64,000 nt of DNA from an uncultured virus (IMG/VR IMGVR_UViG_3300022752_000052) (IMGVR_UViG_3300022752_000052:1-64000), one strand, 5' to 3'; numbered from the stretch's first letter, positions 901 through 19,097 are shown. Numbers and translations are program-made. Notes: a model not told the origin generated them from the letters alone.

Positions 901-1201
901 GTAAAATGTGCAGCAGAAAATACGCTCTATAATGTATGTAAACTTGAAGTGCATTCCTAGTAATTGATGAGGTAATTGGTTGTTTGTGAGCCCCGTTTTC
1001 ACACCGAATGCCTTTATTTCGCACACAGAGGCCGTCTAAAAGACTCTAGGTGCAACCCTTCGTCTAGTTCCACCCACCATGAGAAGATGCAGCAGAATGA
1101 ACGCTACATGCCTTAAAATTGATTCTATGATGTCTATGGGAAATTCATTTTAAACACATATTTAATATTAAAAAAACATGCATAATGATGGATTTTTTCA
1201 T

Positions 1202-1260
1202 CATTTTGTGCATTTTTTAGACATTTTGTGCATTTTTTAGACATTTTGTTGTGCATTTTT
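1202..1260. repeat. 20-bp tandem repeat (CATTTTGTGCATTTTTTAGA, about 2.7 copies)
   Basis: Directly visible. Confidence 0.8.
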
Positions 1261-1282
1261 AAGGATTATCGATAAAAAATAG

Positions 1283-1448
1283 CATTGATTGTCAACGTTT
1301 TATGATTTTTTATATTTTTTTCAACATAGGGAGATAGAAAAAAATGCATTAATTCCATCTAAAAAGCATGTTTGAAAATATTATATCATTGACAATCAAC
1401 ATTTTACATTTTTTTTATATTTTTTTCAACATAGGGAGATAGAAAAAA
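1283..1448. repeat. About 61-bp direct repeat, 2 copies (1283-1343, 1387-1448)
   Basis: CATTGA-nnn-TCAAC...TTTTTATATTTTTTTCAACATAGGGAGATAGAAAAAA in both copies. Confidence 0.8.
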
Positions 1449-1450
1449 GA

Positions 1451-1485
1451 AAAAAGGGCCGGATTATAACTTGGCCGGCCCTTTT
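1451..1485 (-). terminator. Intrinsic terminator
   Basis: AAAAGGGCCGG...CCGGCCCTTTT hairpin just after the stop of 1489-1677. Confidence 0.7.
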
Positions 1486-1488
1486 CCG

Positions 1489-1677
1489 TTAGATTAAAAT
1501 TAGTACACTTGCAATTAGGGACAAGCTAGATACAATTAGGAGCCATCCTGGTACATTCTTTTCCCATGCTGATGATACTGATCCGGATGGTTCTTTTGAT
1601 GCTAAGATTACAACTCCCATGATTCCAAAAATAAGTGCAATAACTGATAATAAAACAAAAACACTAGTTGATAACAT
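1489..1677 (-). CDS. Small two-TM membrane protein
   Basis: Two hydrophobic stretches in 62 aa. Confidence 0.65.
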   Translation of the reverse strand: MLSTSVFVLLSVIALIFGIMGVVILASKEPSGSVSSAWEKNVPGWLLIVSSLSLIASVLILI

Positions 1678-1742
1678 GATTAAAACATTTATTGATTGAG
1701 AATAAATACTGATTTTGGCTACGTTTTACTACCGGAGTTGGT

Positions 1743-2135
1743 TTAGAACGGTAAGTCATCATCGGATAGTAGAGAATCGGATGTATTGGACAAGCTGGCT
1801 ACCTCAAATGAATCATCGAATACATTTTCTTTAGCTTTCTTTTCCGGAGCTTTGTACGCTTGTTTGCTTGTGGCATCGTCTTTCTTATATGTGTCGATGC
1901 TTATTGCGTGCGTTCTTAGCTTTTCTCCTTCTTTAATATCTTTTAGGGGCCATGCGATGAGGGGTATGTATTTCTTTCCGGTCTTTTCCGACTCATATAC
2001 AAACTCCATAACTTCCGGATCCTTCATGCACATTTCGAACAGGTCGGTGATGCAGAGGTTCATTCCAAAGCCGGTCGAATCTTTTGTGTTTATCAACCTG
2101 CCGTTTCCTACAAACTTTTTCTTTTTAGCTTCCAT
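1743..2135 (-). CDS. Putative ssDNA-binding protein-like phage protein
   Basis: GKKYI motif, disordered linker, acidic C-terminal SDDDLPF tail typical of SSBs. Confidence 0.55.
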   Translation of the reverse strand: MEAKKKKFVGNGRLINTKDSTGFGMNLCITDLFEMCMKDPEVMEFVYESEKTGKKYIPLIAWPLKDIKEGEKLRTHAISIDTYKKDDATSKQAYKAPEKKAKENVFDDSFEVASLSNTSDSLLSDDDLPF

Positions 2136-2151
2136 GATAATTTTTGGGGGG

Positions 2152-2484
2152 TTAACCTTTTTTTATTGATAATTTAAACTCTTCTATGCCCTTAGCAACC
2201 TTTTTTGTGATCCACGGGAAAAGCTTACCGTTCTCTAACATGTCGAACCATTCAATCTTTTTTGATGGTCTATGAATGGCTGCAATGTATGTCATGTGTG
2301 TTTTGACTGCCGGTTCATAATCACCGGTTATAACATACAATTCTATTCCGTCTGTTTGAAGTCGTTTACCGCAGTATCTAACACCGTTCGCAATGATAGA
2401 CATTTCATCGTAACATCTTTCTAATATGTTAGCCGGTATATTACTATTGTTATTCATATTAGATGTCGTTAGAATTATTTTCAA
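2152..2484 (-). CDS. Hypothetical protein
   Basis: 110-aa ORF in minus-strand operon. Confidence 0.7.
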   Translation of the reverse strand: MKIILTTSNMNNNSNIPANILERCYDEMSIIANGVRYCGKRLQTDGIELYVITGDYEPAVKTHMTYIAAIHRPSKKIEWFDMLENGKLFPWITKKVAKGIEEFKLSIKKG

Positions 2485-2788
2485 TGTCTTTATTCAAGGT
2501 ATACATGTAGTGACTTTTTAAAACGTATGTCGCTACTCCGTATTCTTCTTCCTGTTGCTTCATTACTTTTAGTTCTCGTTCTTTCTCCTGTATTTTTTTA
2601 GAGTAAGTGTAATTCTTTTTCGTTACCTTAGTTATTGTTACTTCTTTTGTTGATATGGATGATAAGTCGATATCGCTTATCGCCTCCGATATTTTTTCCC
2701 TAAGATCCGTTTCTTTTTCTTTGAGAATCTTTTGTTGTCTAATGAGGCTACCAACCTGGTTTATCCATTCCGTTACTTCATTTTTCAT
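2459..2788 (-). CDS. Coiled-coil hypothetical protein (paralog of 18566-18865)
   Basis: Shares K..Y.YSK....E..LK..K..E...G.ATY pattern; TATCTTTG promoter upstream at about 2809-2816. Confidence 0.75.
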   Translation of the reverse strand: MKNEVTEWINQVGSLIRQQKILKEKETDLREKISEAISDIDLSSISTKEVTITKVTKKNYTYSKKIQEKERELKVMKQQEEEYGVATYVLKSHYMYTLNKDIENNSNDI

Positions 2789-2937
2789 AATTTCATTTAT
2801 TTATTTGGCAAAGATAAAACATTCTATTGATATATGCAACACCTGGTCAAAGTTTTTTTCGCATAAATTTTTCCCATCTATCCAGGATGCGTTCTTCAAT
2901 TTTCCGCGGGGCCATTTTTTTCAGCCCCGCGATTAAT

Positions 2938-3348
2938 TTATGCCGGTAGGGTTAATATACCTTTACATGATTTATAATATTTTCCTTTTTCAGAATCTAT
3001 TTCTATTTCATGATTTATCTCATTTATGAATTCTGTAAGTTTTGGAACTTTTACATTTTCAGATACTTTCTCCATGTAATTTAAAAACACTTTTGTATCT
3101 TCTTCCGTTTTCAATAAGAATGCCTGCATGTTCTTTTCTTCATCTTCAAACAATGGAAAGAAGAATACATTTGTCACATCTTCCGGATCTTCTAGTAACA
3201 GGTAAGCCGTACATAAATAATTTGAATCTGGGAATGTTTTAATAGATGTAATGACGTTATTGAATATAGACATCTTATTATCTATGGACTCTCCTAATGA
3301 TAATGAATCTAATGATATGAGATCCTTTGTTTCTAATTTTTTAGACAT
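2938..3348 (-). CDS. Hypothetical protein
   Basis: 136-aa ORF followed by GCGGGGC...GCCCCGC hairpin at 2906-2930. Confidence 0.75.
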   Translation of the reverse strand: MSKKLETKDLISLDSLSLGESIDNKMSIFNNVITSIKTFPDSNYLCTAYLLLEDPEDVTNVFFFPLFEDEEKNMQAFLLKTEEDTKVFLNYMEKVSENVKVPKLTEFINEINHEIEIDSEKGKYYKSCKGILTLPA

Positions 3349-3362
3349 GTTGTGAGATGTTT

Positions 3363-3716
3363 TTAATTTGTTAGTAAAAAGAACTTCACCGCCGAAATTA
3401 GGTCCCCGAAATTCTTGTAGTGGCCTCCTTCAAAGTAGTATCGTTTTTTCCTGTCGTTGTAAATCACTTCCTCTTCCCGGCCGTTAAAGGCTACTACAAG
3501 GTTATCCTGTTTCGGTTTGATGAAGGTTAGCATGTGATTTAATGTCTCTACGAAATCATCATGTCTGCTAACAATTACGTATTCGAATTTGTTTTGATCA
3601 GGCACAAAGAAAACCGTGTTATTGACTATAGAATAAATCGGGCAATCTGTACTATCCGTTTGGCCGTAAGATAGTAAAGATACGAATAATAAAGCACATA
3701 AACTAATTTTTCTCAT
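3363..3716 (-). CDS. Secreted hypothetical protein
   Basis: Signal-peptide-like N-terminus MRKISLCALLFVSLLSYG-Q. Confidence 0.7.
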   Translation of the reverse strand: MRKISLCALLFVSLLSYGQTDSTDCPIYSIVNNTVFFVPDQNKFEYVIVSRHDDFVETLNHMLTFIKPKQDNLVVAFNGREEEVIYNDRKKRYYFEGGHYKNFGDLISAVKFFLLTN

Positions 3717-3805
3717 ATAATTTTTTGTTTGTTTTTTAAAAGGAAGACAGGATAACCGGAGAGATTAGAGCCTGTCTTCTAAATGCACCACTTAAACTTT
3801 GCTCT

Positions 3806-4801
3806 TTATAAACCGGTCTGTTCTAATATTTTCCGGTGTGTTGTATTGTCTATCGAATCATACCATTTTAAAAACCGTTTGATCCCTTCTCTATATTTTA
3901 CTTTTGGTTCGTAACCTAGATTTTTCAGCGGGGCTACATCAGATGCAGTAAATAAAACATCTCCGTCTTGCATCCGTTCAAAATTCCGCAGGGCCCCAAT
4001 ACCAATCTCCTCCTCCAGGACATCAATAAAATCTAATATCTTAATACTCTCATTGCTACCTATATTATATAACATGTACTTGACATCCGTTTCATTTTTA
4101 ATCACAATATTAATCCCATCAATAATATCATCAATGTAAGTAAATTCTCTAAACATCTCTCCATGATTATAAATGTCAATAGGAATCTTATTATAGATGT
4201 TATATGTAAATTTATAAACCATCATATCTGGTCTACCCCATGGACCATACACTGTAAAGAATCTAAGACCTGTAGTACGCATGTTGAACAAATGACTATA
4301 TACATGTGCCGTCAATTCATTCATCTTCTTAGTCGCTGCATAAAAGGATACTGGCCCATCCGTTCTATCATCTGTACTAAATGTCATATCCATGTTATCT
4401 CTCATTCCATATACACTTGAACTAGATGCATACACTAAATGCTTTACATCATATTTCTTACATGCTTCTATAATGGTTAAAAATCCCTGGACATTTGATC
4501 GGGCATAGAGATCCGGATTTTTAATGCTAGATCTCACTCCTGCCTGGCCCGCAAGATTTATAACCATGTCAAACTTGTGAAGAGAGAATATAGGTTCTAC
4601 CTGATCCCTGTCTGCTATGTCTACGTTGTGATACTCAATGCCCTTCGTCTTATGCAGGTTATCCAATCTCATTCTATTTAATAACCGGGCATCGCTTCTC
4701 TCAAAGAAGTCCACACCTATCACTTTGTGCCATTGGGTTAACATAGAGTGTGCTAGATGACTGCCTATAAATCCTGCGACGCCCGTTATTAGTACTTTCA
4801 T
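3806..4801 (-). CDS. NAD-dependent nucleotide-sugar epimerase (UDP-glucuronate 4-epimerase-like SDR)
   Basis: TGVAGFIG, LAGQAGVR, ASSSSVYG, YAATKK, GLRFFTVYGPWGRPDM. Confidence 0.92.
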   Translation of the reverse strand: MKVLITGVAGFIGSHLAHSMLTQWHKVIGVDFFERSDARLLNRMRLDNLHKTKGIEYHNVDIADRDQVEPIFSLHKFDMVINLAGQAGVRSSIKNPDLYARSNVQGFLTIIEACKKYDVKHLVYASSSSVYGMRDNMDMTFSTDDRTDGPVSFYAATKKMNELTAHVYSHLFNMRTTGLRFFTVYGPWGRPDMMVYKFTYNIYNKIPIDIYNHGEMFREFTYIDDIIDGINIVIKNETDVKYMLYNIGSNESIKILDFIDVLEEEIGIGALRNFERMQDGDVLFTASDVAPLKNLGYEPKVKYREGIKRFLKWYDSIDNTTHRKILEQTGL

Positions 4802-4814
4802 TTTAGTTATTTTT

Positions 4815-4842
4815 TTGTAGTCAGGACAGATTCTAACCTGTA
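4815..4842 (-). ncRNA. Degenerate tRNA-like 3' half (T arm + acceptor strand)
   Basis: ACAGG-TTAGAA-TCTGT-CCTGACT-ACA; same 3' end as the elements at 5101, 5230 and 9540. Confidence 0.4.
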
Positions 4843-5100
4843 AGAGTACACGCCCTCTTAATTATTTAAAATTTAATATATAAATGTTTCTAAAAATCCA
4901 AAAAAACTAACACCCTAATTTATCCAACTTACAGATGTTATGGCTGTCCCCCTAGACAAGGGGTTAGGAATAGTCATTTCGTCCTAACGAGGTCGGGTTG
5001 ACACCCCCTGACGTTCTCCCTATACGTCAATGTACGTACCTATACAGTAATCACTCTGTTTCATCATATTAGGCATACTATCTGGTGATTAACCAGAACG

Positions 5101-5175
5101 TGTGGTCAGAATAGGATTTGAACCTATATTATCAAGCTATTACCCCTGAGGTGTTACCAATTTCACCACCTGACT
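5101..5175 (-). ncRNA. tRNA-like RNA with non-canonical 8-nt anticodon loop
   Basis: AGTCAGG-TG-GTG-AAATTGGTAA-CAC-C-TCAGG-GGTAATAG-CTTGA-TAAT-ATAGG-TTCAAAT-CCTAT-TCTGACC-ACA. Confidence 0.65.
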
Positions 5176-5229
5176 AACCCCTTTGTTTATCTTCAGAGAA
5201 CGGGTACTCTTGCACAACATTTAAGCTGT

Positions 5230-5264
5230 TGGTAGTCAGGACAGGATTTGAACCTGCCCCGACC
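5230..5264 (-). ncRNA. tRNA minihelix (acceptor stem + T arm + NCCA)
   Basis: GGTCGGG-GCAGG-TTCAAAT-CCTGT-CCTGACT-A-CCA. Confidence 0.6.
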
Positions 5265-5274
5265 ATTTTATTTA

Positions 5275-5544
5275 CTAAGAAAACGGTCTATGCACTATGT
5301 CTCCCTTGTCTTCTATGGAGAGCATTACATAAGCATCATCCTCACACCATGAATTCCAACCATCGTACCAATCATCTTTTGTGTAGTTAGTCCACTTAGC
5401 TGACCTGTCTCTATTTATTTCATCTAAGACATCTTCTATATACCATGTTAATTCTTCATTAGATATAGGGTCTAACATAGTGAATACAAAATCATTGACA
5501 TTTCTGCCTGGTAAGAAATCATCTAAATACTTGAATATTGCCAT
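5275..5544 (-). CDS. Hypothetical protein (acidic, Trp-rich)
   Basis: 89-aa ORF, EINRDRS..W..Y..DW..GW pattern. Confidence 0.75.
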   Translation of the reverse strand: MAIFKYLDDFLPGRNVNDFVFTMLDPISNEELTWYIEDVLDEINRDRSAKWTNYTKDDWYDGWNSWCEDDAYVMLSIEDKGDIVHRPFS

Positions 5545-5572
5545 TTTTTAAGTTTTTCGCGGTGACTAATAA

Positions 5573-6199
5573 TTAATATTTTTTACAAGAAGTTAGAATT
5601 TCATGACACAACTCTTCTGGAATTCTGCTTCTTTCATAAGAACCCTTCCTTCCTTGAGTTCCTGTCTTTGAACCTCTAGGAGCAGGGGTATGGTGACATT
5701 TCTTATTACCATTTTTACATATTGGTCTAGGAACCCAATCTTCTGAATTAGTCCATATATCTGTAGGCTTCGCTCTGTCGTCTCCGTACTGGCAATACCA
5801 TACTGTATGTCTTTTAAATTCTTGCATCCATGGCATCTTTCTTAACATGCCTCTTGGATTCTCTATGAAGAAAACCATGTTAGGATTAATCTCTAACCAT
5901 TCCTTTATCAATGATATGAAATGTTGATTAGTGATGTCGCACTCGCTAGCGTACTTGCTCTTCGGCTCTACGCCATTTCTGTGAGTAGATATAGCAGCAA
6001 TAGTGTATGTTGTACAATCTGGAGATGCCCAAATAATATCTGGAACAAACGGAACATCTTCTTTCTTTAGTTTTGAAATGTCTATCTGCAAATCAATACC
6101 ATCAAAGTTTTCCCAATCAACAGAGAATACGTTCATGTCTAATTGAGCAGCAGCTTTGCCAATAGACTTACTGCCTGCGAATAATTCTAATACGTTCAT
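5573..6199 (-). CDS. Short C5-cytosine DNA methyltransferase-like protein
   Basis: Motif I LELFAGS, catalytic WASPDC, motif VI IENP, YCQYG...KPT; little or no target-recognition domain. Confidence 0.8.
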   Translation of the reverse strand: MNVLELFAGSKSIGKAAAQLDMNVFSVDWENFDGIDLQIDISKLKKEDVPFVPDIIWASPDCTTYTIAAISTHRNGVEPKSKYASECDITNQHFISLIKEWLEINPNMVFFIENPRGMLRKMPWMQEFKRHTVWYCQYGDDRAKPTDIWTNSEDWVPRPICKNGNKKCHHTPAPRGSKTGTQGRKGSYERSRIPEELCHEILTSCKKY

Positions 6200-6228
6200 C
6201 TTTTAGTTTAGTGGTTAATAATATGATA

Positions 6229-6285
6229 CAAAGATAGGGGTACCGGATCTACTATACAATACCCCTATAGTTAATTTTTTGTTAA
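6229..6285 (-). promoter_or_regulatory. Bacteroidota-type promoter inside a palindrome (family P1)
   Basis: TTG-N20-TATCTTTG with upstream TTAAC boxes. Confidence 0.7.
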
Positions 6286-6482
6286 TTAGCGTAGATGTTT
6301 GTATTCCTTCTAACTTCCTTGCTAATCTTGTAAGTACCGAAGTAATGCATTTTAGCCTTAGAGAGCAATCGTATGGCCTCTTTTTTAGTGTAGGCAGTAA
6401 CACAAGCGGCACCACAATAAAAGCCATTAGAATCAATCCTTGTGCCATTTAGGATAGCTACCCATTCCTTATTATTTCTCAT
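6282..6482 (-). CDS. Hypothetical protein
   Basis: 66-aa ORF directly after the stop of 6484-6777. Confidence 0.6.
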   Translation of the reverse strand: MRNNKEWVAILNGTRIDSNGFYCGAACVTAYTKKEAIRLLSKAKMHYFGTYKISKEVRRNTNIYAN

Positions 6483-6483
6483 A

Positions 6484-6777
6484 TTATTTTTTATAGTTGT
6501 TTAAAAATTCGGTGTACACATGGTCATACAATACTTCATCGGAATCATCTAAAATATTCATGTCAACATTCTCTACAATCTTACATGTCAATGCATCCAA
6601 ATTTTCCATGATAGACTCAAATGAACCCATCATGTGAGTAAATAGTAGGACATCTTTAGCATCTTTTGTTCCAAGTTTTTCTGATGTCTTATCGTCCTCA
6701 TTCATGATTTCATTACAGATGTTTGATACATGATAGGAAACAATCTTGAATAAATAAGAACTTCTGTCAATGTTCAT
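6484..6777 (-). CDS. Hypothetical protein
   Basis: Start moved to MNIDRSS (6777), downstream of the promoter at 6810. Confidence 0.7.
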   Translation of the reverse strand: MNIDRSSYLFKIVSYHVSNICNEIMNEDDKTSEKLGTKDAKDVLLFTHMMGSFESIMENLDALTCKIVENVDMNILDDSDEVLYDHVYTEFLNNYKK

Positions 6778-6809
6778 TTTTTTTAGTTTAGTGGTGAATA
6801 AATATAGTG

Positions 6810-6866
6810 CAAAGATAAGGGTATCGGATATACTATGCAATACCCTTATCGTTAATGTTTTGTTAA
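6810..6866 (-). promoter_or_regulatory. Bacteroidota-type promoter inside a palindrome (P1)
   Basis: TTAACAAAACATTAAC-GATAAGGGTATTG-N20-TATCTTTG. Confidence 0.8.
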
Positions 6867-7102
6867 TCTTCGTCCTCGTCGGAAAGGGGAACATATCCTT
6901 CCTCATTTTCTAGAGCATCGGTAATTGAATACCATATCTGCTCCATGGTCGCTCCGTTGGTAAGAGCATCATTTAATATTCTATGAGCATCTTCCACACT
7001 TGCTCCCTTGTGTAAGGATTGTACGTCCTCAATGTGCCATAGGTTATCAACAAAGTAACCATGGTCTCTTAATACCTTTTTTGCATCTTCTACTGCGTCC
7101 AT
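6863..7102 (-). CDS. Hypothetical protein (paralog of the C-half of 7470-7910)
   Basis: DAVEDAK.VLRDHGYFVDNLWHI shared. Confidence 0.8.
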   Translation of the reverse strand: MDAVEDAKKVLRDHGYFVDNLWHIEDVQSLHKGASVEDAHRILNDALTNGATMEQIWYSITDALENEEGYVPLSDEDED

Positions 7103-7129
7103 TTTTTTTTTAGTTTAGTGGCGATTAAT

Positions 7130-7369
7130 TCAAAACAATATTATTCGAGCATCTCTTTCGGTTATATAGCCAACCTCTAAGGCTATGTCACAACCATTCT
7201 CTAATGCTTTCAAAAGGTCTTCGTAGGATTCGCATAGTCCTTCGCTTAGGTCGTCATCTAGTACATAGATAGAGCCGTCGAATAAACCTGACTGATAAAC
7301 TTCTTTAGCTTTATCGGTAATCAATAACCATACAAAACCATCAACAATTTTAATTTTTTGGTTGTCCAT
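7130..7369 (-). CDS. Hypothetical protein (paralog of the N-half of 7470-7910)
   Basis: MDNQKIKIVDGFVWLLITDKAKEVYQSGLFDGSIY identical; start moved to 7369. Confidence 0.8.
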   Translation of the reverse strand: MDNQKIKIVDGFVWLLITDKAKEVYQSGLFDGSIYVLDDDLSEGLCESYEDLLKALENGCDIALEVGYITERDARIILF

Positions 7370-7401
7370 TTTTTTTAGTTTAGTGGTGAATAAATATAGT
7401 G

Positions 7402-7458
7402 CAAAGATAAGGGTATCGGATATACTATGCAATACCCCTATCGTTAATGTTTTGTTAA
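7402..7458 (-). promoter_or_regulatory. Bacteroidota-type promoter inside a palindrome (P1)
   Basis: Near-identical to the 6810 copy. Confidence 0.8.
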
Positions 7459-7469
7459 TCTCCGAATTC

Positions 7470-7910
7470 CTAGAAGATGTTCTCATCTTGGAAGTACAAC
7501 TCAATTGCATCAATAATTGCTAACGAGATTTGATCCGTGATATCTTCGTTGGTAAGAGCCATTTTTAAAATCTTTTGAGCATCTTCATCGCTAGCCTCCA
7601 TGTAGTTAAATTGAACATTCTGGATATGCCATAGGTTATCAACAAAGTAACCATGGTCTCTCAATACCTCTTTTGCATCTTCTACTGCGTCAGTATTCCT
7701 AGACCGTCCGATTTCTATTGCAATTTCAAGACCTCTCTCTAATGCATCAATAAGTTCTTCATAGGTCTCTATAAAGTCTGTTTCTACATCGTCATCATAT
7801 AGCGCGTAGATAGAGCCATCGAATAAACCTGACTGGTAAACTTCCTTAGCTTTGTCGGTAATCAATAACCATACAAAACCATCAACAATTTTAATTTTTT
7901 GGTTGTCCAT
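7470..7910 (-). CDS. Two-domain hypothetical protein (fusion of the two neighbouring paralogs)
   Basis: N-half matches 7130-7369 and C-half matches 6863-7102. Confidence 0.8.
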   Translation of the reverse strand: MDNQKIKIVDGFVWLLITDKAKEVYQSGLFDGSIYALYDDDVETDFIETYEELIDALERGLEIAIEIGRSRNTDAVEDAKEVLRDHGYFVDNLWHIQNVQFNYMEASDEDAQKILKMALTNEDITDQISLAIIDAIELYFQDENIF

Positions 7911-7941
7911 TTTTTTAGTTTAGTGGTGAATAAATATAGTG

Positions 7942-7998
7942 CAAAGATAAGGGTATCGGATATACTATGCAATACCCCTATCGTTAATGTTTTGTTAA
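7942..7998 (-). promoter_or_regulatory. Bacteroidota-type promoter inside a palindrome (P1)
   Basis: Identical to the 7402 copy. Confidence 0.8.
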
Positions 7999-8483
7999 AA
8001 GGGTAAGTTGGTATTTAGAATGTTAAGACCTTCTTCTCTCTTCTGCTTGCATAGGTTTCTTAAGTAATTAGAACCTTGCTCAGTCATTAACAAGTCTTCT
8101 ATTTTTGTACGCTTACCGCCTACAAGTACTTCAAGCAAATTGTAGAAGTTTTCTGTACCAATACATAACCCCTTACTAAAATCCTTTTCTCGTTTTTTCT
8201 TATAATAGTCTTTTAACCAAGAATTGAACAGTTCATCTACTACATTCTCTACGCTAGGCTTACCTACATAATTATCATTGTCAGGAAGAGTTTTACAGTA
8301 AGACTCCATTTGGCCGTACAACTCTCTATCGCCTATACAATAACAGTAGGTATATCCCCCCATTCCATCATTTTTACAGTACCCTACTTTCTTTCCGTTA
8401 AAGAAAACATTTGCTTGGAAACAACAAGTCTCTTGTGAATTCCATTCAGAGAATTTAACACTCTTTAATTCAATCTTATTCAT
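7995..8483 (-). CDS. Hypothetical phage protein
   Basis: SQET.CF.A.V..NGK.VG...NDG.GG pattern; own promoter at about 8515. Confidence 0.8.
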   Translation of the reverse strand: MNKIELKSVKFSEWNSQETCCFQANVFFNGKKVGYCKNDGMGGYTYCYCIGDRELYGQMESYCKTLPDNDNYVGKPSVENVVDELFNSWLKDYYKKKREKDFSKGLCIGTENFYNLLEVLVGGKRTKIEDLLMTEQGSNYLRNLCKQKREEGLNILNTNLPF

Positions 8484-8568
8484 TTTTTTAGTTTATGTGG
8501 TGAATAATATAGTGCAAATATATGGGGGATATTTGAGAAAGTCAATACCCCCCTATTTTAATTATTTC

Positions 8569-9141
8569 TTAATTTTCCGCGGGGCTACCCTCTCTATATA
8601 TCCTAATCATTTCTTCCATGTCTTCAGCATCAACATAAGAATAATCTTCCTTAATTTGTTCTTCACTTTCAATAAATCCCTCTTCAACATCAATAACAAA
8701 ATCTTCAAAAAAACCATCAGTACCTAAATGCTTATATTGATATTCCCTATAAGACATTTCAACTATACTCAATTCATCCCCATTTTCATCAATATCTATA
8801 ATACCTGCAAAGCCCATCCCTGGCTCTGAATATTCAATCCGTCCGTTCACTCCGTACTTCTTACATACTTTTTGAACAAATTCATTACATGGACTCCAAG
8901 CCGTTTCACAATTAAAATAATCATGTTGCTCCATTGTATCCCTAATGTCGTCATCCATCATCACACTCCATTTAGTACCGAACTCCGCATTCCATACATC
9001 ATAATTCCATTCACTCTTAATGTCCGTCAATGCAGTGAACATGCAATGACCATCCTTAATCATGCTAACATCTTTTTTCAATGTCTGCATAGCTTTTTCC
9101 GTACCTTCAAATGAGATACAATTTGAACACCAATTTGGCAT
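8569..9141 (-). CDS. MPNWC-start protein (DUF1281/YubB ferredoxin-like family)
   Basis: MPNWCSN, W...FGTKW, ETAWSP, YSEPGMGFAG motifs. Confidence 0.7.
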   Translation of the reverse strand: MPNWCSNCISFEGTEKAMQTLKKDVSMIKDGHCMFTALTDIKSEWNYDVWNAEFGTKWSVMMDDDIRDTMEQHDYFNCETAWSPCNEFVQKVCKKYGVNGRIEYSEPGMGFAGIIDIDENGDELSIVEMSYREYQYKHLGTDGFFEDFVIDVEEGFIESEEQIKEDYSYVDAEDMEEMIRIYREGSPAEN

Positions 9142-9434
9142 AATCTAAAAATTTAAATGGTTAATAATATGTCGCAAAGATAATAACATTCTATCTAATA
9201 TCATAATCATAGAATGAAAAATATATGTTAAATAAATGTTAAAATGAAATGCAGTAAAATGTAACTCATACTATATCTCATCTATTCCCTATCATCTAAT
9301 TGACATTGCAAAAATACACCCCATTTCCCTATTATCCTAATTTCAAATGTTAAAAGGATCTAAGAAAATGTTAAAAAAATGTTAAACCCGAATCCCCACA
9401 CATTACTGGCCATGCTGGAAAGAGGGGCCTGGAA

Positions 9435-9474
9435 AATTTACTCGGGCAAGGCTTTGCCTTGCCCGAGCGAAATT
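9435..9474. repeat. Cassette-boundary site 1 (type A, loop TTT)
   Basis: AATTTA-CTCGGGCAAGGC-TTT-GCCTTGCCCGAG-CGAAATT. Confidence 0.85.
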
Positions 9475-9539
9475 CACTAGCAACAAAAAAACTCCTGACA
9501 TAGACTGCCAGGAGCGAACCACTTAAACTTATTAACCTT

Positions 9540-9665
9540 TGGAAGTCAGGGCAGGACTTGAACCTGCAAGGCTACCGCGCTACCGCGTTGATACTTTTTT
9601 TATTTAACGTGAGGATAGCGTAACCTCATTACAGTTTTTTAGCGTCTACCTTCCGCCACCTGACT
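9540..9665 (-). ncRNA. tRNA-like RNA with anticodon/variable arm replaced by a ~70-nt insert
   Basis: AGTCAGG-TG-GCGGAAGGTAGACGC...GCAGG-TTCAAGT-CCTGC-CCTGACT-T-CCA; perfect 7-bp acceptor and 5-bp T stem. Confidence 0.7.
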
Positions 9666-9682
9666 TATCATTTACTTATTAA

Positions 9683-9892
9683 TTATTTCCTTTTTTCATA
9701 AGAATTAAATACATCACTAGATGGGATATAATTAGCCTCGTTCTTATAAAACAAAGCTGCATTAATTATAGCACTAATAAGTTCTTCTTCAGTCAAGTAC
9801 ACAAGTTCTGATGAATCAAACTCGTCTGAAAGTAAGTCTTCTAAAGTAATTACTAAATCTTTTCTAGTAAGATTTTTTAGTTCTACTAACAT
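9683..9892 (-). CDS. Small acidic hypothetical protein
   Basis: Start moved to MLVELK (9892). Confidence 0.7.
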   Translation of the reverse strand: MLVELKNLTRKDLVITLEDLLSDEFDSSELVYLTEEELISAIINAALFYKNEANYIPSSDVFNSYEKRK

Positions 9893-9915
9893 AATTTTAT
9901 AATTTAAAGTGGTGA

Positions 9916-10143
9916 TTAATAATCTTCTTCGATACACTCGATATGAAATGCTATTACATCTTCATCATCTTTAGTAAGAGTGCCAGCTTTAGCTCTCTCC
10001 AATAATTCAATTAATTCATTATAATCATCAAACATTTTATCTTCTTCTTCTTCGTCCATATAAGGTGAGTATATCATACAATGAGGATTGTAGGTTTCAA
10101 ACCAAGATTCTAACTTATCTAACATTTCATTGTCTAGCTGCAT
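9916..10143 (-). CDS. Small acidic hypothetical protein
   Basis: 75 aa, D/E-rich; promoter at 10178. Confidence 0.75.
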   Translation of the reverse strand: MQLDNEMLDKLESWFETYNPHCMIYSPYMDEEEEDKMFDDYNELIELLERAKAGTLTKDDEDVIAFHIECIEEDY

Positions 10144-10177
10144 GATTTAAAATTTAAAGTGGTGAATAATTATAGTG

Positions 10178-10234
10178 CAAAGATAAGGGTATCGAATATA
10201 CTATGCAATACCCTTATCGTTAATGTTTTGTTAA
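10178..10234 (-). promoter_or_regulatory. Bacteroidota-type promoter inside a palindrome (P1)
   Basis: Same family as 6810. Confidence 0.8.
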
Positions 10235-10236
10235 AA

Positions 10237-10791
10237 CTAGTATATTAGTTTTTTCTCTTGAATTAATAGTTCTGTGATGTCCTTTATATCTCTACCTAAG
10301 ATATGGAGCTTGATTACATCTTGCCCTAGTTCGATGATTTGAGAAACAGATTCTAGGGGGTATTCCTTATAAGAAGAATGCTCTAACCATCTTTTGCCTA
10401 TCCTAATAGTTCCCGTAAAATTGCAAGATAATTTTCTTCCACAACTTTCAAAAGGAGCGGCAAGATAGATTTTTATATATCCTCTACCATGGCCAAACAT
10501 TAAAGATTCACTAATCCCGTTATAATATAAAGTGATTTCATAATCTCCTCCACAAGCTAAATGAGCATACAGATTGTTGTAACCATTAACTTCAAAATAA
10601 GGTAAATCTAATTTATCCATAACATTGGATAGTTCACCATAATAACTAAGCACAAGTTCTTTGAATCTTTTAATAACTTCTAGATTGTGAGAGTCTATAT
10701 CTCTTACATTCTGATTTGACTCTTGAATCAAAGTTGACAAATTAAATACAGACAAATCAATATTGCCTTTGGTGGCTTTTAGTTCAAACAT
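10237..10791 (-). CDS. Hypothetical protein
   Basis: Start moved to MFELK (10791). Confidence 0.75.
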   Translation of the reverse strand: MFELKATKGNIDLSVFNLSTLIQESNQNVRDIDSHNLEVIKRFKELVLSYYGELSNVMDKLDLPYFEVNGYNNLYAHLACGGDYEITLYYNGISESLMFGHGRGYIKIYLAAPFESCGRKLSCNFTGTIRIGKRWLEHSSYKEYPLESVSQIIELGQDVIKLHILGRDIKDITELLIQEKKLIY

Positions 10792-10823
10792 AATAAATAA
10801 ATTTAGTGGTTTAAAATATAGTG

Positions 10824-10880
10824 CAAAGATAAGGGTATCGGATATACTATGCAATACCCTTATCGTTAATGTTTTGTTAA
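10824..10880 (-). promoter_or_regulatory. Bacteroidota-type promoter inside a palindrome (P1)
   Basis: Same family as 6810. Confidence 0.8.
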
Positions 10881-10896
10881 TTTTCCGCGGGGATTT

Positions 10897-11307
10897 TTAA
10901 CTCTTATATTCCCCCAATCCCATACCGTCAGGAATAGAATCAATACACAATTTATAGTCAACCGAAACAATGTGAGAAATATCCCTATTATCAATATCTT
11001 CCCCCAGAAAAGTCCAATTAGGAGCAACTTTAGGATTGTACTTAATTTTAAAATCAGACTCTTTAATAAAATCAGAATATCTAATCTCTAAATGATTACA
11101 TAAAATCCATGCACATACAACCTTAGTACTTTCCCCATTAAAAATCTTAGTAGCTAATTTCTTATTATTCTTTAAAGTGCATCCCATCATGATTAATTGA
11201 ACTTCACATGGATTGTAATATGTGACAACTCCATTATTGCCAATCACTCTCCATTTCATATAATTTTCTCCACGTTGTAAAGAGAATCTAACTTTAATCC
11301 TTTTCAT
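10897..11307 (-). CDS. Hypothetical phage protein
   Basis: 136-aa ORF with own promoter. Confidence 0.8.
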   Translation of the reverse strand: MKRIKVRFSLQRGENYMKWRVIGNNGVVTYYNPCEVQLIMMGCTLKNNKKLATKIFNGESTKVVCAWILCNHLEIRYSDFIKESDFKIKYNPKVAPNWTFLGEDIDNRDISHIVSVDYKLCIDSIPDGMGLGEYKS

Positions 11308-11393
11308 GTTTTTTAATTTAAGTGGTTAATAATCTGATGCAAATGTAGGGGGAATATTTGATAAAGTAAATACCCCCCTATGTTAATGTTATG

Positions 11394-12101
11394 TTAATGG
11401 ATTACATTGTAAATATTCTTAGCTTTCTTTCCACCTTCACACAATCCACATTTAGCGCAGCTTACTTGCTTTTCTTTTGCTATGGTTGGTGCTGATGGAC
11501 AAAGGATAGCACCTTCAACCTCACTAGCATTGTAAGACCTGAATCCAAGGCCTTCGGCTAATTTTACGTCAAAGATATTATGCGTACTAGCCATTAAGTA
11601 TTTTGCATAAGGCTTATTCTCTGGTTTGTGCCATTGGTGAGTATAGCCTGAAACCTTACCAACCAAAGGCCTTATTTGTTCTATCAACTCAAAAGGTAAT
11701 AATGTAGGCTCTCCATACGTTCCCAATCTAGCAAAGGATATTTTAACCTTTTTTGTAACGCTCGTAATTTGTTCCATTACGCCTTCAGCTCCTTCCGGAA
11801 TTAATCCGTTATCCAAACGCTTTTTTAAGGCTTTTAATTTTGCAATCAATCCCCATGCTAGGGATCCGTTCGCATGGGTATAGCAACCTCCTGACTTTCC
11901 GTCGTTTGCATTATAAGAGAACTTACAATCAAAACATACCTTTGAGTCATTTTTTAGGCTACCTTCATTAATCTGGTCAATAGAAAAATGATAAGTTTGT
12001 AAGATAATTTCGCCTTTTTTAGCGAGCTTCGGAGTGGCACTAGGCTTGATATCGATACAGTGGATAACGTCGCCTAATCTGAAATTAATTTGCTTAAGCA
12101 T
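11394..12101 (-). CDS. Cys-rich Gp88-like (radical-SAM-like) protein, paralog of 16125-16844
   Basis: CxDC...GCY, RLGxYG, GYTHQW, MAST, CP, CxxCxLC. Confidence 0.6.
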   Translation of the reverse strand: MLKQINFRLGDVIHCIDIKPSATPKLAKKGEIILQTYHFSIDQINEGSLKNDSKVCFDCKFSYNANDGKSGGCYTHANGSLAWGLIAKLKALKKRLDNGLIPEGAEGVMEQITSVTKKVKISFARLGTYGEPTLLPFELIEQIRPLVGKVSGYTHQWHKPENKPYAKYLMASTHNIFDVKLAEGLGFRSYNASEVEGAILCPSAPTIAKEKQVSCAKCGLCEGGKKAKNIYNVIH

Positions 12102-12326
12102 AACTTGTGTATTTAAGTGGTTAATAATCTGATGCAAAAATAAAAAGTAATTTTCTATTTTCCAAATTTAAGGCAAACTTTTTTTAAATTATTTTTTTGC
12201 CTTTCTAATTACTCTCTCTCTTAACAACACCACAAAGATAAGCATAAAAACAATACCTAGTAGTTAAGGGAGTGTTAATGTTTTCCCTATTTTAGTTAAG
12301 GAAATGTTAAGATCCGCCCCTGCAAA

Positions 12327-12366
12327 AAATTACTCGGGCAGGGCAAAGCCCTGCCCGAGCGAAATT
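12327..12366. repeat. Cassette-boundary site 2 (type A, loop AAA)
   Basis: CTCGGGCAGGGC-AAA-GCCCTGCCCGAG-CGAAATT. Confidence 0.85.
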
Positions 12367-12376
12367 CACTGGCATG

Positions 12377-12411
12377 AAAAAACCCTCCCGGAGTTAACCA
12401 GGAGGGTTTTT
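12377..12411 (-). terminator. Intrinsic terminator
   Basis: AAAAACCCTCC...GGAGGGTTTTT directly after the stop of 12414. Confidence 0.75.
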
Positions 12412-12413
12412 AT

Positions 12414-12890
12414 TTACGAGTGCATATTCACTAAGACAACAAAAGTAAATTTGCCATTAGTGTATAATTCAGAAATACCAGGTTCGTCAATACTTCCGTC
12501 ATAAAAAGTATCTGACCATATATCAACTTTAGTAGGGTCTGAAAGACTTGCTATTTCAGATTGCTCTTTGCAATAATTAGCGGCACATCTCCAATCAAAA
12601 GGATGAACTATTTCAGTATTCTCTAAATTAGACACCTTAAGGAATGCTTGCTTGTAGTAATCATTTACCTCTGTTAAAAAATTAAATCTATTTGGGTCAT
12701 TAAGTAATTCATCCTTAGTTATCCATTTCTCATCAAAAGATTCAGAGAATGATTTGTCTTCTTTGCAATGAGAACCCATGATAGTAAACCAATTATTCTC
12801 TGTACCCCAATCAAATAGATAGTCCTCAACAATGCCAATAGCGTCGGAATGAGAATCAGCTTTTGTTCTAATTAAATGCAGATTGTGCAT
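12414..12890 (-). CDS. Hypothetical protein
   Basis: Start moved to MHNLHL; ends VVLVNMHS. Confidence 0.75.
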   Translation of the reverse strand: MHNLHLIRTKADSHSDAIGIVEDYLFDWGTENNWFTIMGSHCKEDKSFSESFDEKWITKDELLNDPNRFNFLTEVNDYYKQAFLKVSNLENTEIVHPFDWRCAANYCKEQSEIASLSDPTKVDIWSDTFYDGSIDEPGISELYTNGKFTFVVLVNMHS

Positions 12891-12979
12891 AATTTTAAAA
12901 TTTAAAGTGGTGATTAATATTTTACAAAGATAGGAGGAACATTTTACATTTCCAAACATTCCCCCCACATTTTTTTAAA

Positions 12980-13705
12980 TTAATTTGCGAACTCCATAGA
13001 AAGATTAGCTAACCTCTCATTGATAATTGCAGTCTTGTTTGGGTCTTTCAATGCAGAATATTTTCTTCTACCTGCAAACCCATTAATCAATTTTTCTTGA
13101 ATGCGATTCTGAATTGCCCAAAGCGTATTTTCATCATCTGCGAACCTTTCTGACGCAAGTAATACCTTAGCCTCATTTTCTGTAAAGGCTCTCTTAAAAC
13201 GCAAAGCAGCAGCCTTCATGGCGAATTCAATAGCCTTTTCTTCGGTCAAGTTTACAGACATTTGCTGCAATACATATTCCTCGAGTTTAGGTAGCAATTC
13301 AAAAAAGTTGGCTACAATCTCACCTGAAATAACTTTCTCTGAAATATCGATTGCCTTCTTTCCAAAATGCCTTATTTTGAAAATCTTAGATTCAAATCTT
13401 GAATCCGATACAGTTAGTCCGTTTGAGCATACTAATCTAAATATCCCCATTGAACATTCAAACCCAACCGTTCCGTCAAACGAATTACGGATAACGACCT
13501 CTGGATATAAGGTTTCACCATTTAAGATTAATTCCTTATTGTACCTCATTCTAATAAGGTGCGCGGAACTTTTAGCACCTTTCTTTTTAGTCTGAAAGCC
13601 CGAAAGCTCAAAACCATTAGACTGAAGGTCATTAATTAATTTCTTTGAGCTAATAGCTACATACTTTGCGCTTAGATTTGCGCTTACTTCTTCTGTGAAA
13701 AGCAT
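12980..13705 (-). CDS. DUF932/DUF945-family protein
   Basis: NSFDG, GIFRLVCSNGL, LW..NRIQE motifs. Confidence 0.8.
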   Translation of the reverse strand: MLFTEEVSANLSAKYVAISSKKLINDLQSNGFELSGFQTKKKGAKSSAHLIRMRYNKELILNGETLYPEVVIRNSFDGTVGFECSMGIFRLVCSNGLTVSDSRFESKIFKIRHFGKKAIDISEKVISGEIVANFFELLPKLEEYVLQQMSVNLTEEKAIEFAMKAAALRFKRAFTENEAKVLLASERFADDENTLWAIQNRIQEKLINGFAGRRKYSALKDPNKTAIINERLANLSMEFAN

Positions 13706-13930
13706 ACATTAAAAATTTAAAGTGGTTAAGAATCTGATGCAAAAATAAAGAGTAATTTTCTATTTTCCAAATTTAAGGCAAACTTTTTTTAAATTATTTT
13801 TTGCCTTTCTAATTACCCTCTCTCTTTATAACACTACAAAGATAAGTATAAAAACAATACCTAGTAGTTAAGGGAGTGTTAATGTTTTCCCTATTTTAGT
13901 TAAGGAAATGTTAAAATCCTGGTCCTGCAA

Positions 13931-13970
13931 AAATTACTCAGGCAGGGCTTTGCCCTGCCTGAGCGAAATT
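13931..13970. repeat. Cassette-boundary site 3 (type A, loop TTT)
   Basis: CTCAGGCAGGGC-TTT-GCCCTGCCTGAG-CGAAATT. Confidence 0.85.
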
Positions 13971-14033
13971 CACTGGCATGAAGATCCCCGACGGACACTA
14001 AATCCGACGGGGCAAAAAACAAGTCATGTATTC

Positions 14034-14243
14034 TTACCTTAGCTTTGCTCTAAAATAATTAAAAACTTCGGGGATATCTTTCTTGTAATACGGTTGATTA
14101 TCCTTAAGCCATTCCTTTAGTTCTTTGTCATTTTTAAAAGGTGCTGTCCAGGAATGACTATTAATAATTCTATTAAAAGTGGGCTCAAGTTCATCTATAA
14201 AATCTTGAACTGTCCAACCTTCCCAAATATGTTTATTATTCAT
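14034..14243 (-). CDS. Hypothetical protein
   Basis: Start moved to MNNKHIWEGW. Confidence 0.75.
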   Translation of the reverse strand: MNNKHIWEGWTVQDFIDELEPTFNRIINSHSWTAPFKNDKELKEWLKDNQPYYKKDIPEVFNYFRAKLR

Positions 14244-14336
14244 TTTACTTTTTTTAAGTTTTTCGCGGGGATTAATATAATTTAAAGATAGGGAGAACAT
14301 TTATATTTTTAAACATTCCCCCATCTTTTTTAAATC

Positions 14337-14729
14337 CTATCCATATATAATTTCATTTAAAAATACAATCTGTAAAACAACATCTCCAGTAACTGCATCA
14401 TCATTATCATTTATCATGTCTAACAGATGGTCTAAGGGAACATTCTTAACTCTTTCATGTACTGTATCTAATGTAATATATTCTGTATCCATTCCACCTT
14501 CAAGGTCTTTCAATCCAATTCTAACTCCATCTCTTAACATTTGCATTAAAACATCTTCATAACATGGACTACTCAATTTAGCCTTAGCATTATTGTAGTC
14601 AGATTGTTTGTACTTTAAATCAAGTCCATATCCACTACACATATAATCCAATGAATTACATAAAGCATTGAAAAAAATCTCTTCGCTCAATTCATTTGTA
14701 AGCGAAACTTTTAAACCTTCTTTGTTCAT
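14337..14729 (-). CDS. Hypothetical phage protein
   Basis: C-terminal DAVTGDVVLQ...EIIYG motif. Confidence 0.8.
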   Translation of the reverse strand: MNKEGLKVSLTNELSEEIFFNALCNSLDYMCSGYGLDLKYKQSDYNNAKAKLSSPCYEDVLMQMLRDGVRIGLKDLEGGMDTEYITLDTVHERVKNVPLDHLLDMINDNDDAVTGDVVLQIVFLNEIIYG

Positions 14730-14771
14730 TTTTTAAGTATTTAAGTGGTGATTAAGATATTGAAATTCTAC

Positions 14772-14999
14772 TTATCTGTTTTCCATAATTTGACTAATCA
14801 TAATATCCATTGCTTCCTTATGCGTGAGAATGTTTCCAAACTCTAACATACTTTCTTCATCATAATATACTCCATTTCTGTCATTCCATTTTAACCAACT
14901 AATTAAGCTTTCTCTTGTCCATTTGCTTAATTCCTCTCTTAATTGTGATTCATTCATAGAATCATCTAAGATTCCATAAAAATTATGTCTTGTTCCCAT
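14772..14999 (-). CDS. Hypothetical protein
   Basis: Start moved to MGTRHNF; WLKWNDRNGVY. Confidence 0.75.
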   Translation of the reverse strand: MGTRHNFYGILDDSMNESQLREELSKWTRESLISWLKWNDRNGVYYDEESMLEFGNILTHKEAMDIMISQIMENR

Positions 15000-15081
15000 A
15001 GATACTTTATTTAAGTGGTGATTAATATAAGGCAAAGATAAGGGGAATATTTTACATTTCCAAACATTCCCCTCACATTTT

Positions 15082-15576
15082 TTACGCTAATTGAAAAACT
15101 TCTTTTGCTTTTAGATTCTGAATGCAGTCAACCTCAATCATTCTCAATTCAAACTCATTAGATTCCGTTTCTGGTTCTATTTCTTGCATTCTTTTAACTA
15201 ATGCTAACCGATTCCGTTCTGTTGTTGCGTCTGGAAAACCCCATCTAACTTGTTTTCCTGGAATTAAGAAAATGCGTAGAAATTTCTTTAGGTTCTTTGG
15301 ATTGTCGAATAAATGACCTTTGTTATCCAAAGCTCTAGCCCAACCTGGATTTACTACAACTTCCTCGCCCTCTCTATTCTCTAATCTTTTTTTGTAGGTG
15401 CTACCCAATTGGCAGGTACGAAAAGTAATGCAGCGCACTTCTTCGCGAGAAATACCATTAGCAGCCAACCAACCATAAGTTAGCTTTTTTGCTACCTTTT
15501 CTGCTGATGACTCATACTGGATAGCAGCAAAAGTGTTTCTAGGCGATAAGCCCTCGATGAAATTTAGAATACTCAT
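15082..15576 (-). CDS. Hypothetical protein
   Basis: 164-aa ORF with own promoter. Confidence 0.8.
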   Translation of the reverse strand: MSILNFIEGLSPRNTFAAIQYESSAEKVAKKLTYGWLAANGISREEVRCITFRTCQLGSTYKKRLENREGEEVVVNPGWARALDNKGHLFDNPKNLKKFLRIFLIPGKQVRWGFPDATTERNRLALVKRMQEIEPETESNEFELRMIEVDCIQNLKAKEVFQLA

Positions 15577-15705
15577 AAGACTTGTTTATTAAGTGGTTTA
15601 AAATTATGATACAAAGATAAGGGTAAAATCAATACCTAGTAGTTAAGAGAATGTTAATGTTTTCCCTATTTTAGTTAAAGAAATGTTAAAATCCGCCCCT
15701 GCAAA

Positions 15706-15745
15706 AATTTACTCAGGCAGGGCGGAGCCCTGCCTGAGCGAAATT
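15706..15745. repeat. Cassette-boundary site 4 (type A, loop GGA)
   Basis: CTCAGGCAGGGC-GGA-GCCCTGCCTGAG. Confidence 0.85.
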
Positions 15746-15811
15746 CACTGGCATGAAAGATCCCCGACGGACACTAAATCCGACGGGGCTAAAAAACAAG
15801 TTATTATATTT

Positions 15812-16042
15812 TTAGTAGTTTATGCCTCCTTCGCATCTACCGTTATTAAAAATTTGGTCGTCGCTTGGGTCTTCGTCGTAAATTGTTAGTATGTAATTTA
15901 CAAATTTTTCTAAGTCCTTTTTTGATATACCGTTGAACCCGTCGAAGTCCTTAAGTTCTGATACCGTTTCTTTTGCAAGTATTATAAGCTCTTCGTTTAT
16001 GTCGTTTTGAGAGCTTGCAGATATCCTACTGTTGATTGCCAT
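15812..16042 (-). CDS. Hypothetical protein
   Basis: 76-aa ORF between promoter and hairpin. Confidence 0.7.
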   Translation of the reverse strand: MAINSRISASSQNDINEELIILAKETVSELKDFDGFNGISKKDLEKFVNYILTIYDEDPSDDQIFNNGRCEGGINY

Positions 16043-16124
16043 AACTTTATAATTTTAAGTGATTAATAATATGTTGCAAATATAAGGGGAATATTTGAAA
16101 TATCCAAACATTCCCCTATATTTT

Positions 16125-16844: not shown

Positions 16845-16985
16845 AACCTGTTTTTGTTTAAGTGATTAATTAATTGCATTACAAAGATAATACTATTTTT
16901 TAAATTTTAATAATAAGTTTAGTTAAAAAAGTGTTAATGTTTTCCCTATTTTAGTTAAAGAAATGTTAAGATTCGCCCCTGCAAA

Positions 16986-17025
16986 AATTTACTCAGGCAA
17001 GGCTCCGCCTTGCCTGAGCGAAATT
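16986..17025. repeat. Cassette-boundary site 5 (type A, loop TCC)
   Basis: CTCAGGCAAGGC-TCC-GCCTTGCCTGAG. Confidence 0.85.
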
Positions 17026-17079
17026 CGCTAGCATAAGAATGCCCACCAAACCGTTCCGTTTGGTGGGTTTCTTTATTTA

Positions 17080-17316: not shown

Positions 17317-17402
17317 TTTTAAGTTTTTTGTGGTTTAAAAATTATAAAGCAAAGATAAGGGTATTGAATGTATTATGCAATACCCTCGGTGTTAACGTTT
17401 TG

Positions 17403-18236: not shown

Positions 18237-18263
18237 CGCTCTGACAAGGGTCCTTAAGTTTCC

Positions 18264-19088: not shown

Positions 19089-19097
19089 TGTTTGGTT

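Follow-up and report, generated by a model that had tools for sequence, protein, structure and literature searches.

What use would a phage have for genes that keep the part of a transfer RNA (tRNA) read by maturation enzymes and replace the part that reads codons? This question is raised by a 64,000-nucleotide stretch of DNA from an uncultured virus (IMGVR_UViG_3300022752_000052:1-64000; hereafter the window), in which four tRNA-like elements, here called A to D, lie on the minus strand between positions 4,815 and 9,665. The window belongs to an uncultured virus record of 77.6 kb that is about 44% complete. It contains a replication module as well as a long block of small early genes on the minus strand; judged by the DNA runs that carry the stretch, the phage has a lake or freshwater source. 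We propose, with a probability of roughly one half, that the elements belong to a large family of phage RNAs that do not decode, are built on the frame of a leucine tRNA and would be excised, displaying inserts and releasing flanking RNAs. As part of this same reading, A and B would be intact family members, C a deletion derivative and D a decayed copy.

Reading the minus-strand sequence bore out the four elements that a first-pass annotation of the window had picked out. Element A (9540..9665) carries a full tRNA-Leu-type frame. Its acceptor stem pairs AGTCAGG (9665-9659) with CCTGACT (9550-9544), and between these strands lie a Leu-type D arm (9656-9642), an insert of about 70 nt (9640-9569) with hairpins at 9628-9610 and 9587-9576, and a T arm, GCAGG-TTCAAGT-CCTGC (9567-9551); the 3' end consists of U73 (9543) and an encoded CCA (9542-9540). 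A perfect acceptor stem, a D arm, the CCA and the insert had all been described before and stand, with the correction that the stem has 7 bp, to which an eighth pair (A-U) could be added, and is followed by a discriminator U. The covariance model of the family described below (R1) scores A at 56.5 bits (E 8e-12). With the Rfam tRNA model, A was not among the hits at E≤10, and its homolog L072 scored 34.6 bits. Element B is a 73-nt frame (5103..5175, earlier given as 5101-5175) that scores 58.9 bits on the family model and, at 42.7 bits against a gathering threshold of 29 bits, passes as a cloverleaf of the Rfam tRNA family RF00005. It has an A73 discriminator, and its CCA is not encoded. The insert of B forms a hairpin of 5 bp that closes an 8-nt loop, GGUAAUAG, and its variable region has 4 nt; the Rfam alignment shows the 8-nt loop and no U33, in agreement with the earlier remark that this loop has no U-turn.

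The two remaining elements are shorter. Element C (5230..5264), a match to the 3' motif, lacks positions 8-48 of the frame and with them, as had been noted, any D or anticodon arm. Its GGTCGGG (5264-5258) adjoins the T arm (5257-5241) and forms a 7-bp stem with CCTGACT (5240-5234) in which two pairs are G-U; A73 and an encoded CCA come next, so that C is a true minihelix and more than a 3' half. The family model scores it at 32.0 bits, aligning only the 3' half convincingly, with a doubtful far 5' partner at 5410. Element D (4817..4842, earlier 4815-4842) is a decayed T arm, missing one C and with C56 changed, followed by the acceptor 3' strand CCTGACT-A (4825-4818). Its sequence and its 15.4 bits (E 0.16) confirm the degenerate 3' half that had been described; the family-model alignment offers a possible 5' strand at 4929-4923. 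D directly precedes the leader of an epimerase gene (3806-4801). The 20-nt 3' motif that the elements share, GGTTCAARTCCTRYYCTGAC, occurs three times in the window against 0.02 expected, a count that none of 100 shuffles reached, and the rest of the 77.6-kb record holds no further copies. A real tRNA-Met in the window scores 32.1 bits on R1, well below A and B. These two are full-length matches to the frame model; C and D fall short and count as derivatives. ARAGORN, from which undetermined calls had been expected, returned "tRNA-???" for B and no call for A, C or D.

The elements are not peculiar to this virus. Scans of IMG/VR with the 3' motif and with a 5' 16-mer found at least 122 and at least 126 stretches, respectively, and at least 251 distinct elements of 67-182 nt were extracted from these uncultured phage contigs. 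All follow one order: acceptor AGTCAGG, U8, a D arm (commonly GGCGGAAT(T)GGTAGACGC), a variable middle, U48, the T arm, CCTGACT, and positions 73 and 74. Among the 251 collected, 216 have U48, 213 have A73 and 238 have C74, and only 6 encode a CCA. R1 was built from an alignment of 77 of the frames, in which 97.8% of the cells of the three helices are paired (30-39% in slid controls) and 12 of the 15 pairs show changes on both sides, which none of 500 shuffles reached. Homologs without stem covariation, which would have spoken for decayed pseudogenes, were thus not what we found. In the same alignment conservation is 90% or more at T8, A14, A15 and G18 and complete at T54, T55, C56 and A58. 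Acceptor stems also covary where they depart from the common sequence, as in AGTCGAT/ATCGACT, AGTCATA/TATGACT, GACCGAG/CTTGGTC and GGCAAGA/TCTTGCT, which belong to neighbours found with the Rfam or the family model.

The elements often sit within tRNA clusters. The densest array (contig L173, about 1100-6150) holds 13 leucine frames with 12 different inserts, one of them used twice, within about 5 kb; next to these, in the same orientation, are 14 genes for canonical tRNAs, Leu(taa) and Leu(tag) among them. A further type of member, found in contigs L140/L143/L145 (= L107), has an extra hairpin in the D loop and a T-arm-like hairpin in the insert, and shares a conserved two-hairpin trailer with L139, a homolog of A. 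Among 75 loci the best protein cluster occurred in 13 and no cluster was RNA-related, although HNH endonucleases lie near the elements in a few loci; as no protein family accompanies the frames, their partners should be host factors.

Cultured phages appear to lack the family. A megablast search of the window region against them gave no match. An 82-nt member matched 161 of their records by one half only, mostly in annotated tRNA-Leu genes, and a two-piece match was seen in none of the 60 listed; in Flavobacterium phage immuto, a relative of one of the contigs, the element is absent. A scan of bacterial genomes with the 16-mer gave 120 loci, of which only six have both halves; these six lie on short contigs of metagenome bins (4-33 kb where listed), and we estimate the remaining matches to be near chance level for a 16-mer in 596 Gb. 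Rfam recognizes only tRNA in the window, the B-D spacer and 20 related loci. We found no description of the family in the literature, in Rfam or in 50,697 cultured-phage records, nor in the part of the supplements to PMC10690425 that was searched. That paper is a catalogue of viral structured-RNA candidates which mentions tRNA-like ones in general terms, and since its supplements were searched in part, the family may be among its unnamed candidates.

Could the frames be decaying tRNA-Leu pseudogenes or recombination scars, maintained by crossovers between gene cassettes at the repeated frame sequences? Truncation or decay is seen in C and D, and contigs of related strains break or join at the ends of elements. 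In contigs of sequencing runs X8 and X10, 4816-5281 is replaced by nine letters that read as the acceptor 3' strand, a remnant at the 4815/5282 joint; several contigs break exactly at 5232, near the 3' end of C; and one contig joins a C-type 3' end to the trailer and terminator of the A type. The joints 5126/9544, 4863/5232 and 5256/9640 have short sides, are hints only, and could stem from repeats or other organisms. A T arm and its trailer have also moved between unrelated contexts, as contig L395 illustrates (see below). These breaks and joins indicate that the constant frame also marks exchange points. However, no neighbouring protein comes near the frame in conservation, the frame helices covary and the tertiary-contact bases are kept, features that would not be expected to last in 251 distinct copies. 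We therefore give a purely degenerative origin a very slim chance.

The frame is of leucine type. Many cultured phages have annotated tRNA-Leu genes that match its 5' half, and the best chromosomal hits of the family model in a Flavobacterium metagenome-assembled genome (MAG) are tRNA-Leu(taa), (gag) and (caa), at 54.4, 48.9 and 44.9 bits. In that bin the three tRNA-Leu genes rank above Ser; in a second bin (Sediminibacterium) the best chromosomal hit is Tyr. The tRNA-Leu(caa) of the Flavobacterium MAG has a D arm identical to that of the family and the same "A-CAA" 3' flank. Compared with canonical type-II tRNA-Leu (RF00005), the family retains the acceptor, D and T arms, with the identical D arm, the 3' flank of the gene and, in most members, A73 and U48; it differs in having unrelated inserts of 15-130 nt where the anticodon arm and a regular variable arm would be, and in its acceptor AGTCAGG, which was not seen in the host-type tRNA-Leu genes inspected. 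According to PMC2377443, leucyl-tRNA synthetase (LeuRS) requires A73 and the core contacts U8-A14, A15-U48, G18-U55 and G19-C56, and can dispense with the anticodon arm. The bases so required, including those of the tertiary core, are the ones that the family conserves, A73 in most of its members. B, C and D have A73 and A has U73; where A73 is kept, LeuRS could read the frame too, and such frames may be charged with leucine.

A retained leucine identity set (PMC2377443) would also suit decoys, that is, RNAs that titrate host factors binding tRNA, such as tRNA-cleaving defence nucleases, LeuRS or enzymes that read the upper half. The frame is phage-specific, given the six two-half matches among 120 bacterial pattern hits; hyperdiverse inserts would fit an arms race; and defence nucleases that remove the anticodon arm exist, as PMC13648713 describes for OLD. 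On the other hand, the inserts contain no conserved mimic of an anticodon loop, and the 75 loci yielded no linked protein. We consider a decoy role quite improbable.

What sets the family apart from tRNA is its middle. The region between the D and T arms falls into 209 sequence clusters, 181 of them singletons. Some inserts are hairpins with UUCG- or GCUU-type tetraloops or second T-arm-like hairpins, and a second T-loop-like motif is present in 10 of 251. A decoding anticodon arm would have a 5-bp stem and a 7-nt loop with U33 and a purine at position 37; instead, B has its 8-nt loop, A has two unrelated hairpins and C has no arm at all. The claim that these are not decoding tRNAs is therefore well supported: the anticodon and variable arms are replaced throughout the family by unrelated inserts, and a codon-reading arm that gives way to a different folded insert in each copy cannot decode. 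Their resemblance to tRNA is real, since B exceeds the Rfam threshold and the Rfam tRNA model aligns many members of 100-158 nt end to end at 29-45 bits, and it might be argued that they are functional tRNAs with odd anticodon loops or spliced inserts, B for instance being a quadruplet-reading suppressor. However, the loop of B begins with GG and has no U ahead of the would-be anticodon. Splicing of the insert of A to give a normal tRNA is ruled out because nothing like the halves of an anticodon stem borders it or the other inserts. ARAGORN assigned scattered or undefined anticodons to 33 family members despite their one leucine-type frame, and canonical tRNA-Leu genes coexist with the frames in L173. 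On these grounds we rejected both the splicing and the quadruplet-suppressor reading and give decoding next to no credence.

The surroundings of the frames resemble those of true tRNA genes. In the canonical tRNAs of the same contigs, C74 is found in 226 of 235, the commonest tail is "CAA" and CCA is rarely encoded, and the family is alike. A Bacteroidota-type -7 box lies just upstream of only 8 of 105 elements. Because the 3' flank is like that of canonical tRNAs, the frames are probably excised from longer transcripts by the tRNA-trimming enzymes of the host.

Two of the elements in the window are followed by what may be RNAs in their own right. The 3' trailer of A (9481..9539, minus strand) consists of a single-stranded segment at 9539-9516, here called the anti-leader, a strong intrinsic terminator hairpin at 9515-9491, picked out by a terminator scan, and a T run. 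When this 28-nt trailer was matched with 95 minus-strand start regions, 35 duplexes of -10 kcal/mol or below were obtained against 13.2 in shuffles, a number reached in none of 200. Leaders of minus-strand genes between 9152 and 24404 contain the complement of its core, TTTAAGTGGTT, about 18 times. In this region (9150-24400), about 18-35 early genes start with a common cassette made up of a hairpin, a TTTG...TATTATT promoter-like box, a leader of the AAYCACTTAAA type and the ATG, the leader being the part to which the trailer of A is complementary.

Directly behind B lies a structured trailer RNA of about 215 nt with a U-rich end (4895..5102, minus strand), which is conserved in contig L395. 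There it is about 95% identical, and the frame that precedes it differs from B in its 5' half, insert and acceptor stem. Its consensus fold has 51 pairs, two of them with changes on both sides, and it matches no Rfam family. Runs X10 and X12 have contigs whose match is confined to 4901-5126; other lake-run contigs have only this trailer and the T arm.

The layout of the A trailer, with a tRNA-type 3' end, a single-stranded seed and a terminator, is like that of 3'ETS-leuZ of Escherichia coli, described in PMC8166272 as a small regulatory RNA that derives by excision from a tRNA-Leu precursor trailer and works through base pairing. The two differ in that 3'ETS-leuZ sponges small RNAs with Hfq, whereas the A trailer, as judged by its complementarity, would pair with messenger RNA (mRNA) leaders and follows a frame that does not decode.

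These flanks fit the earlier suggestion that the elements could serve as processing punctuation, and they bring up a stronger version of it, in which the frames are nothing but RNase P and RNase Z cutting signals between the mRNAs and small RNAs of polycistronic transcripts and the inserts are functionless filler. About a third of the elements abut open reading frames (ORFs) on the same strand, with a start no more than 40 nt downstream in 32 of 101 and a stop no more than 40 nt upstream in 31 of 101. In addition to this arrangement, the 3' context is that of canonical tRNAs, the trailers behind A and B look functional, a minihelix such as C would suffice as a signal, and the t-elements of plant mitochondria act in this way (PMC1920247). 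Yet a cutting signal needs no conserved D arm, U8, A14/A15, G18 or U48, and all of these are kept. There is also little to punctuate in an array as dense as that of L173, and insert hairpins stay paired through changes on both sides. We regard the frames as unlikely to be punctuation alone.

This last point leads to the inserts themselves. A and its close homolog L139 differ in the loops of the two insert hairpins, yet each hairpin is kept through one change on both sides; in the lake runs, strain variants map to the hairpin-1 loop of A (9616-9621). Further compensatory changes were found in small insert clusters, and compared with shuffled sequences the inserts fold with a mean z of -0.54 (n=206, p 3e-11). 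These observations are suggestive of functional inserts, for which the evidence is thin. The single-stranded linker in the insert of A (9587-9602) has a 16-nt exact complement on an mRNA strand, at G000:C1:68066-68081. The complement falls in a 672-amino-acid ORF (67362-69377) that belongs to no PHROG family, and none of 100 shuffles gave more than 14 nt. A similar search for a target of the L139 insert matched only the element itself within its 10-kb fragment.

Taking these observations together, we propose the following course of events. The frame (acceptor, U8, D arm, U48, T arm, mostly A73, and C74) would be the part read by the maturation enzymes of the host, namely RNase P, RNase Z or exonucleases for 3' trimming, and the CCA-adding enzyme. 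In place of the anticodon and variable arms it has an insert of about 15-130 nt that is specific to the lineage. Lying within a longer transcript, a frame would be cut out at both ends. One product would be a tRNA-shaped RNA that displays the insert and may be nuclease-resistant; the others would be flanking RNAs with precise ends. The cut at the 3' end of A would yield a small RNA, made of the 28-nt seed and the terminator hairpin, that could pair with about 35 early-gene leaders and so might regulate them, and the cut at the 3' end of B would yield the conserved structured RNA of about 215 nt. Of the roles that the first-pass annotation had offered for non-decoding elements, a scaffold displaying a variable insert is the best anatomical fit, in view of the constant frame, the diversity of insert clusters and the compensatory changes within inserts. 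Together with the processing role it accounts best for the data; the decoy role gained no support from them and was not refuted.

Several results weigh against this proposal. A look for RNA sequencing runs that contain 4700-9800 gave none. Insert folding is only modestly better than in shuffles, and the compensatory evidence comes from clusters of just 2-6 sequences. The near-invariance of the acceptor sequence was partly built in by the search patterns. As antisense RNAs to neighbouring genes the inserts were rejected, for their longest complement was 9.68 nt within their own ±10 kb and 9.70 nt in foreign loci, and none of 60 exceeded the controls. An anti-leader trailer was likewise rejected as a property of the family, own and foreign loci being equal (p 0.77, n=104). 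In the window, a second anti-leader, TTTAAGTGGTG (3740-3800, minus strand), lies just past the stop codon of the epimerase gene, with a hairpin and a T-rich run after it, so that an ordinary gene without a frame has the same 3'-end design as A; the trailer system can therefore be separated from the frame. Some copies may be non-functional, since C and D have the look of relics. Finally, A and L139 have U73, a change that reduced leucylation 45-fold in the Aquifex system of PMC2377443.

In a broader and more tentative form, these elements may be the natural "tRNA scaffold" of phages with Bacteroidota-type hosts: a single leucine frame, excised, CCA-tailed and perhaps leucylated, which would be reused up to 13 times per genome to produce and stabilise hundreds of unrelated small RNA domains (aptamers, decoys or antisense seeds) and to launch trailer RNAs, its modules being swapped by recombination at the frame. 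The engineered tRNA scaffold of Ponchon and Dardel is built alike, keeping the acceptor, T and D arms and exchanging the anticodon arm for an RNA of interest, and PMC3753655 reports that such chimeras are processed and protected by host enzymes in E. coli. Whereas that scaffold was made by engineers from tRNA-Lys or tRNA-Met bodies, the phage elements occur in nature, in many copies, and are of leucine type. If the RNAs are made as predicted, phages would have evolved the trick of RNA engineers, hiding an RNA in a tRNA body for trimming and protection. There would then be a large uncharted class of phage small RNAs, with hundreds of inserts, in hosts without Hfq-type chaperones. In the window, the frame and its anti-leader trailer make up a concrete candidate switch for the whole set of early genes. 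For annotators, many of the "tRNA" calls that come with odd anticodons on contigs of phages would not denote decoders.

Other natural systems resemble the family in part. RNAC and RNAD of phage T4 (species 1 and 2 stable RNAs) are small RNAs from a phage tRNA gene region whose roles PMC3014915 gives as unknown. The likeness noted here is one of gene setting: members of our family also occur within tRNA clusters. The T4 RNAs are single genes, whereas the family has one frame in many copies with many inserts. Were the proposal right, it would offer a rationale for the old puzzle of such tRNA-cluster RNAs. The plant-mitochondrial t-elements are described in PMC1920247 as folds resembling tRNA, with the T arm conserved, which guide cuts by RNase P and RNase Z, define mRNA ends and may receive non-encoded C or A. 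They are organellar and degenerate, have neither a constant full frame nor a diversified insert, and their cleavage has been mapped, while that of the present family is predicted. The tRNA-like domain of tmRNA and the bacterial YrlA Y RNAs place tRNA-like modules inside larger non-decoding RNAs (PMC4201824). Both were considered as identities and rejected: tmRNA because ARAGORN made no tmRNA call, Rfam gave no match and pair 3:70 is U-A, not G-U; and YrlA or Y RNA because the ends of the RNA form the acceptor stem, Rfam gave no match and the 86 proteins of the window include no Ro-type domain.

Two features of neighbouring genes deserve mention. Small ORFs at 7470-7910, 7130-7513 and 6863-7102 look like a duplicated gene (6860-7910), one copy of which is split into N- and C-terminal ORFs, each with its own leader cassette. 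The gene at 3806-4801 encodes an NAD-dependent sugar epimerase/dehydratase and, with a run of glycosyltransferase and methyltransferase genes at 38000-53400, suggests functions in surface-sugar or DNA-sugar modification.

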